Source: a virus | DNA: 64,000 nucleotides | Virus record (IMG/VR): IMGVR_UViG_3300025598_000024 | Span: 32,001-96,000 of that record | Reading direction: 5' to 3' (one strand) | Part shown: positions 21,028-23,837 of the stretch, piece by piece | How positions within the stretch are numbered: the first letter of the stretch is position 1 | How the letters are laid out: every line of letters starts with the position of its first letter | The notes under the pieces: model-generated | The model's input: the letters and a program-made list of their open reading frames with translations, nothing else | Database searches by the model: none | Told to the model about the DNA's origin: nothing | Program-made: the position numbers and the translations under genes

Positions 21028-21701
21028 GGTGCGACCCTACCATTCTCGTTCCATGCCTCGTATGTTACCGGCATGGCTTGTTTAAAAAACTCTTCGACAG
21101 CACGAGCATAGTCCTGAATCTCCTGTTGTGCATGCCGCTCTGCTCTAAGGCTCAAGAACGCCATCAATGACCTGGCGTTCACTGTCCAGATCCATTCAGT
21201 GTATGCGTTCACTGGCAGTACAATGCGTGCCAGCTCTGGTGCTACCCCACATGCTAGCAGAGTTTTGTAGCCCTGGAATGCACTGCTTGACGCTGAGTCA
21301 ATCAGCCCTGCGATAGCAGGTTCATTCATGACTTCGTACTCGTAGGCTCCTGGCTTGCCAACACGCTTGCGGATGTGATCACGGTCAGGAACATAGTAGC
21401 CCATGTCGATCTCGGTGTAACGACCGCTCACCTCATTGAATGAGTTGCCAATACGATGACGGATCCATTCCCTGGCCACAAAGATTGGCAGGCGAACACA
21501 GAACTTGAAGTAGGTGTGTTCGAATGGTGAACCATGCCGGTTACGCATAAGGTAACCGATCAGTTTGTCATCGCCAGGTTCCATCTGTTCATGGCTGGTA
21601 TGGAAAGACACGCGTGCAGCGTTAACCACGTCCAGGTCACTGGCACTGCTGTCTAACAGTGTGACGAACCCATCGTTATGTACTTTGATTGTATTTTCCA
21701 T
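21024..21701 (-). CDS. thyX: flavin-dependent thymidylate synthase
   Basis: NAARVS, HGSPFEH, REWIRHR..SFNEVSGRY, NARSL..FL.LR, AQ.EI. Confidence 0.95.
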   Translation of the reverse strand: MENTIKVHNDGFVTLLDSSASDLDVVNAARVSFHTSHEQMEPGDDKLIGYLMRNRHGSPFEHTYFKFCVRLPIFVAREWIRHRIGNSFNEVSGRYTEIDMGYYVPDRDHIRKRVGKPGAYEYEVMNEPAIAGLIDSASSSAFQGYKTLLACGVAPELARIVLPVNAYTEWIWTVNARSLMAFLSLRAERHAQQEIQDYARAVEEFFKQAMPVTYEAWNENGRVAP

Positions 21702-21777
21702 GGAGCCGAGAGTGGGATTCGAACCCACGACATCTTTATTACAAGTAAAGCACTCTGACCAACTGAGCTATCTCGGC
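21701..21777 (-). tRNA. tRNA-Thr(TGT), encoded CCA
   Basis: GCCGAGA/TCTCGGC, CTTTA-CTTGTAA-TAAAG. Confidence 0.93.
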
Positions 21778-21782
21778 GGGTG

Positions 21783-21855
21783 TACCCCTGGCACGAATCG
21801 AACGCGCAACCTAGTGGGTAGAAACCACTTGCTCTATCCATTGAGCTACAGGGGC
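21783..21855 (-). tRNA. tRNA-Arg(TCT)
   Basis: GCCCCTG/CAGGGGT, AGTGG-TTTCTAC-CCACT. Confidence 0.88.
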
Positions 21856-21860
21856 ATATT

Positions 21861-22037
21861 CTAGTGGGTGATGTCATGCTCCTTGTCGAACTGCTTGTGA
21901 ATCTTCTGCCAGATCCGTTTACGACCCAGGTAGTAACCCAGTGTGAACACAATGATCTCTTCTATCACACTCACAATGCTTTCCGCAATCAGATGATTGG
22001 GATCGGTGAGAATGCTCCACCAGGTCTCGTGATGCAT
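21861..22037 (-). CDS. small membrane protein (58 aa)
   Basis: Manual: MHHETWWSILTDPNHLIAE..IIVFTLGYYLGRKR.. Confidence 0.55.
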   Translation of the reverse strand: MHHETWWSILTDPNHLIAESIVSVIEEIIVFTLGYYLGRKRIWQKIHKQFDKEHDITH

Positions 22038-22039
22038 GG

Positions 22040-22279
22040 CTAACTCCCTGTGTCGTAGATGTTATCGCTGATCCCGTTCTGCCGCAAGATCTCGATTGCC
22101 TCATAGTAGTACGGGTTGCTCATCACACTAGCAGCCGGTGCTGCTGTCTTCAACACACTCTTCACCCACATCTTGTTAGCGTCATAGTTTACGAATGCAT
22201 CGATCAGCTTGGGCTGTACCGGTACCTTGGCCAGTTCCAGGATGATCCTTGCTGCCCATCGTATATCTTTAGTTGTCAT
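22040..22279 (-). CDS. hypothetical protein
   Basis: GGAGG RBS. Confidence 0.6.
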   Translation of the reverse strand: MTTKDIRWAARIILELAKVPVQPKLIDAFVNYDANKMWVKSVLKTAAPAASVMSNPYYYEAIEILRQNGISDNIYDTGS

Positions 22280-22290
22280 TGTTACCTCCG

Positions 22291-22333
22291 TACCCTGAGG
22301 GGGACTTGAACCCCCACCCCATGGAGTATACCA
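22291..22333 (-). pseudogene. 3' half of a split Leu-type tRNA
   Basis: TGG (end of anticodon stem), variable arm, GGGGG-TTCAAGT-CCCCC, TCAGGGT-A; pairs with GCCCTGA at 22961. Confidence 0.85.
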
Positions 22334-22783
22334 TTATTTTTTCTTGTGTGCTGCTGTTTTCAATGCATGGCAGTTAGGGCACAAAATTTGTAAGTTCTCC
22401 AAAGAATTATCAAAATGATCACTGTTGATATGGTCTAGCTCTAGCGGTGCTGGTTGCCCCAACCATTCTGTTATCCCACAGACCTCACAAATGGCTTCTT
22501 TAATACCCTCCTTGATAAGTTTTAACCTTAACTTCCCAGAATGGATTGGCTGCCTATTAGATAGGTACTCTTCGATATCAACTTTATTCCTGGCTGGTCT
22601 TCCTTTTGTAAAGCTTTTGCCAACAAAATGTGAGTAATCAATACCTGCTTTTACAGCCCTATTTTTTAAATGGGTTTGTGACCCAGTCATTGGTTTTACG
22701 CCTATTTTTCTGCATGTATCAGCCCATGTAGTAGATGAAGCCACTGCATCAGCCAACTGTTGATCTGTATATCTATGTTTCAT
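22334..22783 (-). CDS. HNH homing endonuclease
   Basis: CEVCG..W.GQ..PLELDHIN.D..DN.LENLQILCPNCH; AT-rich. Confidence 0.9.
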   Translation of the reverse strand: MKHRYTDQQLADAVASSTTWADTCRKIGVKPMTGSQTHLKNRAVKAGIDYSHFVGKSFTKGRPARNKVDIEEYLSNRQPIHSGKLRLKLIKEGIKEAICEVCGITEWLGQPAPLELDHINSDHFDNSLENLQILCPNCHALKTAAHKKK

Positions 22784-22837
22784 GTATACTATAACACCAC
22801 GTATACACTTTTACATTGTTTACATTGTTTTATATTG

Positions 22838-22921
22838 TGCCCCCGGTCAGACTCGAACTGACAAGACCTTACGGTCATTACCTCCTAAGGGTAACGTGTT
22901 TACCTATTTCACCACGGGGGC
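22838..22921 (-). tRNA. tRNA-Leu(TAG), nested inside the split tRNA
   Basis: GCCCCCG/CGGGGGC, TTACC-CTTAGGA-GGTAA, long variable arm. Confidence 0.9.
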
Positions 22922-22926
22922 ATATC

Positions 22927-22961
22927 AAACCTGGCGCGTCTGCCTATTCCGCCATCAGGGC
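22927..22961 (-). pseudogene. 5' half of split Leu-type tRNA
   Basis: GCCCTGA-TG-GCGGAATAGGCAGACGC-G-CCAGG-TTT, then break. Confidence 0.85.
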
Positions 22962-22965
22962 TCTG

Positions 22966-23039
22966 TGCCCCAGGTGGGATTCGAACCCACACTACAAGGA
23001 TTTTAAGTCCTCCTCCTCTGCCTGTTGGGATACTAGGGC
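22966..23039 (-). tRNA. tRNA-Leu(TAA), short variable arm (actinobacterial type)
   Basis: GCCCTAG/CTGGGGC, GAGGA-CTTAAAA-TCCTT. Confidence 0.9.
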
Positions 23040-23044
23040 TTCTG

Positions 23045-23126
23045 TGGGCCAGGTAGGATTCGAACCTACGTAGCTTTACGCGGCGGTTTTACAGACCGCT
23101 TCCTTTGGCCGCTCGGACACTGACCC
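23045..23126 (-). tRNA. tRNA-Tyr(GTA)
   Basis: GGGTCAG/CTGGCCC, GCGGT-CTGTAAA-ACCGC. Confidence 0.93.
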
Positions 23127-23137
23127 ATTCTACTGCG

Positions 23138-23211
23138 TCGGAATGACAGGATTCGAACCTGCGACATCTGCGTCCCAAACGCAGCGCTCTACCAAGCTGA
23201 GCTACATTCCG
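23138..23211 (-). tRNA. tRNA-Pro(TGG)
   Basis: CGGAATG/CATTCCG, CTGCG-TTTGGGA-CGCAG. Confidence 0.93.
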
Positions 23212-23221
23212 TATACTGTTG

Positions 23222-23292
23222 TCCTCCTGGAGGGTACCGCCCCCTCTTTTCAGGATTAAAAGTCCCGTACATCACTTTAATGTTTCAGGAGG
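23222..23292 (-). tRNA. non-canonical tRNA-Lys(TTT)
   Basis: CCTCCTG/CAGGAGG; ACAT/ATGT D-stem; CGGGA-CTTTTAA-TCCTG; GAGGG-GGCGGTA-CCCTC (T-loop lacks TTC). Confidence 0.75.
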
Positions 23293-23770
23293 TTAAATAT
23301 TCTTCTATTGATTCTTTCTTTTTTTCATACCATCCTAGTCTGATGTTGCAACTATAGCACAGTAACCCTCTAACGCTACCAGTTTTGTGATCGTGATCAA
23401 CACAAAAGTTTTTACCAGTAGAGCACCTATCGATCTTGCATATTCCACAGCGATGGTTTTGACCCTCTAGCATACTGTAGTAATCAGCAATAGTCAAACC
23501 AAATTTTCTAGTAGCAGATTTTATATTAAAACAATTTCTACAATATGCATTTTTATTGTTATCACCTTTGTAGGCACCACAGTATAAACATGGTTTTGGT
23601 GATGGTACATAACTGGAGTACCTAACTGAATGCTGTGCTCTAGCTGCGCAGCTTTGAGAACAGTATAATCCTATATTCTTTTTTACTTGATAGGCATATC
23701 TTTTATATACATTGCTACAGTCAGTTCTACTGCATATTACTTGCTCTGATGTTCTAGTAGTCATAGTCAC
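23285..23770 (-). CDS. Endonuclease VII-family homing endonuclease
   Basis: KFGLT..DY..ML..Q..RCGIC...FCVDHDHKTG.VRGLLC..CN..LG. Confidence 0.9.
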   Translation of the reverse strand: MTMTTRTSEQVICSRTDCSNVYKRYAYQVKKNIGLYCSQSCAARAQHSVRYSSYVPSPKPCLYCGAYKGDNNKNAYCRNCFNIKSATRKFGLTIADYYSMLEGQNHRCGICKIDRCSTGKNFCVDHDHKTGSVRGLLCYSCNIRLGWYEKKKESIEEYLTS

Positions 23771-23810
23771 TCTCCTGTGGCTACTAGTGCAAGTACAAGT
23801 ATGAATTAAA

Positions 23811-23837
23811 TCACTCTACCAACTGAGTTACAGGGGC
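23811..23837 (-). pseudogene. 5' tRNA fragment (acceptor strand + D-arm)
   Basis: GCCCCTG-TA-ACTC-AGTTGGTA-GAGT-G, then non-tRNA sequence. Confidence 0.75.

Follow-up and report, generated by a model that had tools for sequence, protein, structure and literature searches.

Analysis of a 64,000-nucleotide stretch of viral DNA (bases 32001-96000 of the 105-kb uncultured-virus record IMGVR_UViG_3300025598_000024, hereafter the window) revealed a tRNA-Leu(TAG) gene that is interrupted in its anticodon loop by a second, complete tRNA-Leu(TAG) gene and by a gene coding for a free-standing HNH homing endonuclease. This arrangement is very probably the product of a break-and-replace insertion, by which a free-standing homing-endonuclease unit (tRNA-Leu, hairpin spacer and HNH gene) entered the resident tRNA-Leu(TAG) gene. 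Three stages of the locus are preserved in the natural population, namely an empty allele, a filled allele and an allele from which the nuclease has been lost.

Layout and alleles of the split tRNA-Leu(TAG) locus

The locus is located on the minus strand, in a tRNA cluster where a tRNA-Pro, a tRNA-Tyr and a 75-nt tRNA-Leu(TAA) are followed by the six pieces of the split locus, all in the same orientation. The first piece is the 5' half of the resident tRNA-Leu(TAG) (22927..22961; 35 nt; tRNA positions 1-34), now a pseudogene fragment, which comprises the acceptor strand GCCCTGA, a D stem of 3 bp, the 5' side of the anticodon stem and TT-T, and which ends exactly after T34. It is followed by (i) a junction filler of 5 nt, GATAT (22922..22926), which is absent from the empty-site alleles and possibly represents the last bases of the donor's upstream sequence, (ii) a nested, complete class II tRNA-Leu(TAG) of 85 nt (22837..22921), detected by ARAGORN and by the Rfam tRNA model (59 bits), with A73 and a long variable arm, (iii) a spacer of 53 nt with an 8-bp hairpin (22784..22836), between the nested tRNA and the HNH gene, and (iv) the free-standing HNH homing-endonuclease gene (22334..22783), an intact ORF coding for 149 aa and matching PF01844 (E=1e-7). 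The sixth piece, the 3' half of the resident gene (22291..22333; 43 nt; positions 41-73), begins right behind the HNH stop codon and contains TGG, the variable arm, the T arm, TCAGGGT and A73. The insert between the halves, made up of the filler, the nested tRNA, the spacer and the HNH gene, thus measures 593 bp. The original prediction had placed both halves accurately to the base, and its description of about 590 bp holding a complete, divergent tRNA-Leu(TAG) and an HNH gene, whose stop (ORF 22783-22334) abuts the 3' half (from 22333), is borne out. Downstream of the element, and outside it, lies a 79-aa ORF (22040..22279, minus strand), which served as a synteny anchor for the empty-site alleles.

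The 3' arm of the spacer hairpin covers the HNH start codon; the hairpin is present in the minimum-free-energy structure and is not significant (z -1.16). No Shine-Dalgarno sequence was visible in the 53-nt spacer before the HNH gene, and a promoter and terminator scan returned sites no more frequently than in shuffled sequence. The tRNA with anticodon TAA (Leu) that lies 3 nt upstream of the split gene (22965-23039, minus strand, 75 nt) is devoid of a long variable arm. A possible second nuclease cassette was also observed in the same tRNA cluster (23222-23837, minus strand). It begins with a 25-nt 5' fragment of a tRNA-Lys(TTT) (23837-23811), which is identical at 23 of 25 positions to the intact tRNA-Lys of locus L015 and stops after the D arm; an ORF coding for an Endo VII-type nuclease (23770-23285; PF02945, E=6e-19) comes next, and behind it an unusual tRNA-like sequence whose anticodon arm carries TTT. 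A 3' half corresponding to the truncated tRNA-Lys was not seen there.

Relatives of the locus were found via the 79-aa ORF, whose homologs were aligned, the alignment then being used as a query for related loci; a single-sequence locus search with this ORF led to the sister allele only, and the alignment query was needed for the rest. Homologs of the ORF (64-100% identity) flank an intact or a split tRNA-Leu(TAG) in the relatives, and a closer homolog, P0002, is on record with 95% identity. Exact DNA pattern searches of IMG/VR with the 5' half and with the nested tRNA each matched the sister allele only, and the same search with the 3' half gave no matches.

Five metagenome contigs (L012-L016) carry at the syntenic site an uninterrupted tRNA-Leu with the same acceptor stem and the anticodon TAG, and no HNH gene. 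These are the relatives with a continuous GCCCTGA...TCAGGGT tRNA that the original prediction had proposed to look for, and the anticodon that they display is the one it had considered compatible with the TT-T remnant. In L015, the intact tRNA-Leu(TAG) is located directly upstream of the 79-aa ORF. In L012 (2708-2996), L013, L014 and L016, the tRNA gene and the 79-aa ORF are separated by an ORF of about 95 aa coding for a GroES-like protein, which is absent from L015 and from the window (22280-22290).

Alignment with the intact alleles defined both junctions unambiguously: the window matches them through T34, departs for 593 bp and rejoins them at T41. Exactly 6 nt, AGG(A/T)CC (positions 35-40), have been replaced by the insert, and they include the anticodon bases 35-36; the earlier estimate of about 6 nt missing from the anticodon arm was therefore exact. 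The 5' half is identical at 34 of 35 positions to the intact tRNA-Leu(TAG) of L012 and L016, and the T arm and acceptor strand of the 3' half are identical to those of L016, so that the two halves are not a chance match. The G1-U72 wobble pair is native and not a sign of decay, since the intact alleles have it too. When the 6 nt were restored in silico, a canonical tRNA-Leu(tag) of 84 nt was obtained.

Two loci from other assemblies, L003 and L011, match the window at 99.4-99.9% identity in this region. The two halves and the nested tRNA are still present in them, but a deletion of 435 bp (window 22366-22800) leaves just the last 32 nt of the HNH ORF. Relatives carrying the nested tRNA without the nuclease had been named beforehand as evidence that would weigh against the cassette interpretation; L003 and L011 do lack the whole HNH gene, but because the last 32 nt of the ORF remain, its loss is a secondary deletion and not an independent HNH-free state. 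Over 2711 aligned nt, L003 differs from the window by 9 substitutions, four of which lie within the 43-nt 3' half; two of these four break the T stem. The 5' half is identical in L003 and in the window. As the same layout is found in independent assemblies (L003, L011) and an HNH protein of identical sequence is on record from 10 contigs, the arrangement is real, and an assembly artefact is excluded.

The locus is consequently polymorphic for the presence of HNH, being filled in the window, filled with the HNH gene deleted in L003 and L011, and empty in L012-L016. The filled state is limited to one terminal lineage (window, L003 and L011), and several relatives at a greater distance have the empty site, which argues for an insertion and not for a loss.

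The nested gene shares 54-61% identity with the resident tRNA-Leu(TAG) and 76% identity with a tRNA-Leu(tag) of a Streptomyces phage. Being divergent from the resident gene and closer to the Streptomyces phage tRNA, it arrived together with the nuclease and did not arise by local duplication. The nested tRNA and the HNH gene are missing together from the empty alleles. In the 105-kb record the nested gene is the sole tRNA-Leu(TAG), which fits a functional replacement, as had been supposed for a cassette that rescues the function of its target; the HNH gene is also single-copy there. On these sequence grounds, the nested tRNA is likely the functional replacement of the outer tRNA-Leu(TAG) gene, which is most likely dead. 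The anticodon stem of the nested copy differs from that of the resident gene at all ten positions. No shared anticodon-arm signature that would explain immunity was seen among the intron-less tRNA-Leu partners linked to HNH genes.

The HNH endonuclease and its association with tRNA-Leu genes

In addition to PF01844, the HNH protein matches phrog_10822 (E=6e-42), and the family invariants C99, C102, H118, N130, C135, N137, C138 and H139 are all present. Its AF2 model (pLDDT 89) predicts an N-terminal three-helix domain followed by a C-terminal zinc-bound HNH domain. Foldseek with this model returned weak matches to the McrA/Gme/GVE2 HNH fold only, and a sequence search of the PDB with the protein gave no match. 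The ORF is free-standing, with its own start and stop, outside any intron (none was detected in 21500-23800 at E<=10). Hundreds of homologs exist, among them P0012 with 69% identity. The donor context of the cassette was not found among the HNH loci compared, which are at most 50% identical to the window HNH.

The closest characterised sequence relative is F-TflIV (hegA) of phage T5, the catalytic domain of which is 51% identical to that of the window HNH (E=1e-26). Like the window gene, hegA is a free-standing gene within a tRNA array; unlike it, hegA encodes a different N-terminal domain, follows a tRNA-Ile and splits no tRNA. F-TflIV (hegA) and F-TflI/II are reportedly HNH site-specific endonucleases encoded in the T5 tRNA region (Akulenko 2004, PMID 15456135, as cited in PMC2330249 and PMC5714182). 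The HNH genes of Streptomyces phage JimJam and hegC of phage T5, which also lie beside tRNA-Leu(UAG), were set aside as members of other HNH families. In JimJam (L103, 814-1278), a 93-aa HNH is flanked by two different tRNA-Leu(tag) genes; in phage T5 (L104, 1023-1709), tRNA-Leu1(UAG) is separated by 17 nt from the start of hegC, which extends into tRNA-Ser2.

The family was sampled with an alignment query, which yielded 80 of its roughly 440 IMG/VR loci (78 with a complete ORF; 29 HNH clusters at 80% identity). In 70 of these 78 loci and in 23 of the 29 clusters, an immediate neighbour of the HNH homolog is a tRNA-Leu gene encoded on the same strand. This partner mostly lies 24-52 nt upstream of the HNH gene (typically about 45 nt), with a hairpin in the spacer. 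At about 25 loci it was missed by ARAGORN and was revealed by an orphan T arm behind a recognisable intron 3' end. The association extends to cultured phages of unrelated hosts, since an HNH homolog is located in a tRNA array next to a tRNA-Leu in GodonK, S-CRM01, phiPsa347, mistaenkt and Slocum; in GodonK, a Leu(TAG) gene lies 3 nt upstream of it. A tRNA-Leu, a hairpin spacer and an HNH gene constitute the standard unit of this family, and the nested unit of the window has the same layout.

Several further features of these loci were observed. Short 'Leu(TAA)' genes resembling the one at window 22965-23039 are the HNH partners in many IMG/VR loci (e.g. L038-L040). The spacers in L023-L102 (45-50 nt) have a conserved structure, in which the arms of an inverted repeat (GGTAAAC...GTTTACC, for example) enclose a TATAAATA-like motif, and they end at the start codon without a Shine-Dalgarno sequence; this architecture resembles the control of T4 homing-endonuclease genes by a late promoter and a hairpin. 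The stop codons of HNH homologs also repeatedly fall within the beginning of the next tRNA gene, 10-11 nt from its 5' end (23 nt in L100), as in GodonK (L005, 1932-1941), Slocum (L001, 3970-3979), S-CRM01 (L007, about 1937-1947), L075, L096-L098 and L100. With the stop codon inside the next tRNA, 5' processing of this tRNA would cut the nuclease mRNA just before its stop.

Group I introns were identified in many of the partner tRNA genes. Indeed, the RF00028 model scored above its gathering threshold at 8 of the 20 loci tested (59-69 bits), in tRNA-Leu(UAA) genes of L026, L047, L057, L061, L067, L078, L082 and L084 that lie about 110-330 nt upstream of the HNH start. Behind each of the eight intron-bearing genes, a free-standing HNH homolog begins at a distance of about 45-50 nt. 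As the 5' exons end at CTT, the intron is placed at U34|A35 of tRNA-Leu(UAA), which is the same bond as the 5' junction of the window. Partners with and without the intron were found inside single HNH clusters. Collaborative homing has been described for a free-standing nuclease beside an ORF-less intron, the target of the nuclease being the intron insertion site (PMC3984707), and the intron in a tRNA-Leu beside a free-standing HNH gene corresponds to this pattern. In L102 (625-1380), the HNH ORF ends about 30 nt before the intron 3' end and the 3' exon, so that this HNH appears to be intron-encoded.

A second broken tRNA gene is present in L050 (1337-2256), where a complete tRNA-Leu(TAA) is followed after 40 nt by an HNH gene (243 aa) and then directly by the 3' part, from T34 on, of another tRNA-Leu(UAA). 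The anticodon of this second tRNA is formed by the HNH stop codon, and the break lies at 33|34, one bond upstream of that in the window. This 3' part is 92% identical to a 3' exon that lies upstream of the HNH gene in L052. No corresponding 5' half was found in the approximately 1.3 kb of the locus upstream of the complete tRNA-Leu, and L050 is therefore only a partial second example.

Probable route of insertion and competing explanations

The following sequence of events most likely accounts for the locus. The HNH, or a close relative encoded by a co-infecting phage, would have introduced a cut or a nick into the resident tRNA-Leu(TAG) gene, within the anticodon loop or adjacent to it. The donor tRNA-Leu would have been too different for ordinary homologous repair; the break would have lost 6 nt (positions 35-40), and the whole unit would have been sealed in by illegitimate joining. 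The resident gene would thereby have been left as two dead halves, and the unit's own tRNA-Leu(TAG) would have taken over decoding. The filled allele could then spread by ordinary homing, since the two halves supply flanking homology. The sister allele illustrates the next stage of the homing cycle, with the nuclease gene deleted and the 3' half decaying.

In this scheme we infer the identity of the cutter, the position of the cut, its nature (break or nick), the way in which the ends were joined and the immunity of the nested copy. A double-strand break is an assumption, since small HNH enzymes related to this one are nickases. The tight junctions (5 nt before the tRNA and 0 nt after the stop) are not explained by random end joining. 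Furthermore, the cleavage site of a free-standing endonuclease may be distant from the place where its gene is inserted, which counts against a break-and-replace insertion.

A broader proposal is that tRNA-Leu genes are cut by this HNH family in the anticodon loop, either at U34|A35 or beside it, that the scar in the window is a natural footprint of the cleavage site, and that phage tRNA genes are a major overlooked arena of collaborative homing. We put it forward tentatively, with chances somewhat short of even.

Among the competing explanations, the one that survives best, though it is unlikely, is a general illegitimate recombination in a recombination-prone tRNA array, the enzyme targeting another site and the anticodon position being unrelated to its specificity. 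For free-standing endonucleases like SegB of T4, the recognition sequence lies in the T-arm region and conversion can be promoted at a distance (PMC2330249), the Endo VII-type nuclease gene beside the truncated tRNA-Lys suggests that the region is generally unstable, and the partner tRNAs display no immunity signature. However, the 5' junction falls on exactly the bond at which introns are inserted in the partner tRNA-Leu genes of the family, the gene broken in L050 is interrupted one bond upstream, likewise within the anticodon loop, the anticodon TAG is common to the destroyed gene and the cargo tRNA, and the HNH family is tied to tRNA-Leu across very different phages.

It is very improbable that the outer tRNA is still functional, the insert being removed from the RNA by a degenerate ribozyme or by RNase P/Z processing followed by ligation. 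The halves in the window do keep perfect acceptor, D and T arms, and the nested tRNA would be excised by RNase P/Z. Nevertheless, a search with Rfam models in E-value mode detected no group I or group II intron in 21500-23800, even at E<=10, the only matches being tRNAs and noise; the RF00028 core was undetected in the window; and the exons lack positions 35-40, with the two anticodon bases 35-36 absent from the DNA itself. The reading as a group I or II intron, including a group I intron of the tRNA anticodon loop, was accordingly rejected, and the claim that the insert does not splice stands. A single trait of a group I intron was found, as the 5' junction after T34 corresponds to the canonical U34|A35 bond of tRNA-Leu; only the 5' junction matches, and nothing tRNA-like is present at the 3' boundary. 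Whether the halves were fused end to end or with the 5' half extended to the RNase P site (half plus GATAT), ARAGORN gave only non-canonical loops with ambiguous anticodons. Repair at the RNA level was also discarded, since the joined halves yield no canonical tRNA unless the 6 nt are restored. The T-stem-breaking mutations of the sister allele likewise argue against a functional outer tRNA. A functional split or permuted tRNA of the archaeal type was rejected as well: the 6 nt are missing, the sequences adjacent to the junctions do not pair, and the 3' half of the sister allele is decaying.

Finally, it is hardly to be expected that the halves have been retained to pair across the insert as a tRNA-like acceptor/T-arm domain that recruits RNase P/Z and thereby determines where the HNH mRNA ends or how abundant it is. 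In its favour, the expression of segB in T4 is believed to be limited by the processing of the neighbouring tRNA (PMC2330249), the HNH stop codons of the family often overlap the next tRNA by about 10 nt, and the halves are intact in the allele bearing HNH and decayed in the one that lost it. However, this is purely structural speculation, with two alleles only and a hypothetical pairing over about 600 nt, and a recent insertion followed by neutral decay explains the state of the halves equally well.

Comparison with known systems and significance

In its behaviour, the closest known system is SegB of T4, a nuclease encoded among phage tRNA genes that recognises tRNA-gene DNA (the T arm), drags neighbouring tRNA genes along in homing and is absent from relatives (PMC2330249; for SegB amplification, see PMC13096335). 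The combination of a nuclease and an adjacent tRNA in one unit is common to SegB and to the present family (70/78 loci, 23/29 clusters). The catalytic domain in the window is an HNH and not a GIY-YIG domain, so that the enzyme works like SegB and is not a member of the SegB family. Moreover, SegB is located between intact tRNA genes, whereas the HNH gene of the window lies inside a target gene that has been destroyed and replaced by a co-travelling copy.

Compared with collaborative homing, the same bond is broken, but the window has no intron, and protection apparently comes from a substitute gene copy and not from a splicing intron. Splicing mobile elements are also known at the anticodon loops of tRNA genes, where the endonuclease recognises anticodon-arm DNA, as may be the case for the window HNH. 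These elements leave the tRNA functional, whereas that of the window cannot splice because 6 nt are missing and no ribozyme is present.

In Aeromonas phage Aeh1, nrdA is split by mobE, and the protein pieces reassemble or are trans-spliced. Genes split by the insertion of an endonuclease have been termed 'fractured genes' (PMC2677866). As in these cases, a free-standing homing-endonuclease gene of the window divides a host gene in two; here, by contrast, the pieces are RNA pieces without an anticodon, and the function would be carried by a linked spare gene.

In the literature searched, no nuclease-plus-tRNA cassette nested in a tRNA gene was described. According to the current view, a homing endonuclease can last in an essential gene only where an intron or intein takes it out of the product, or else it stays in intergenic DNA. 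The locus described here points to a third route, available to RNA genes, which consists in destroying the target and carrying a substitute. What is new is an intron-less homing that would break its target and replace it, a reading supported at the level of the sequence.

The empty, filled and nuclease-deleted alleles offer an unusually clean view of the homing cycle and predict the cut site of the enzyme. An enzyme with a recognition site of the size of a tRNA gene may also serve as a rare cutter. The context of the HNH family links the nuclease to group I introns in phage tRNA-Leu genes, although a review of 2014 reported phage introns only in protein-coding genes and none in phage tRNA genes (PMC3984707). 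According to papers cited in PMC10644984, phage tRNA sets are now seen as a counter-defence against host anticodon nucleases. The context of the HNH family also suggests that endonucleases are a main force in the reshuffling of such sets.
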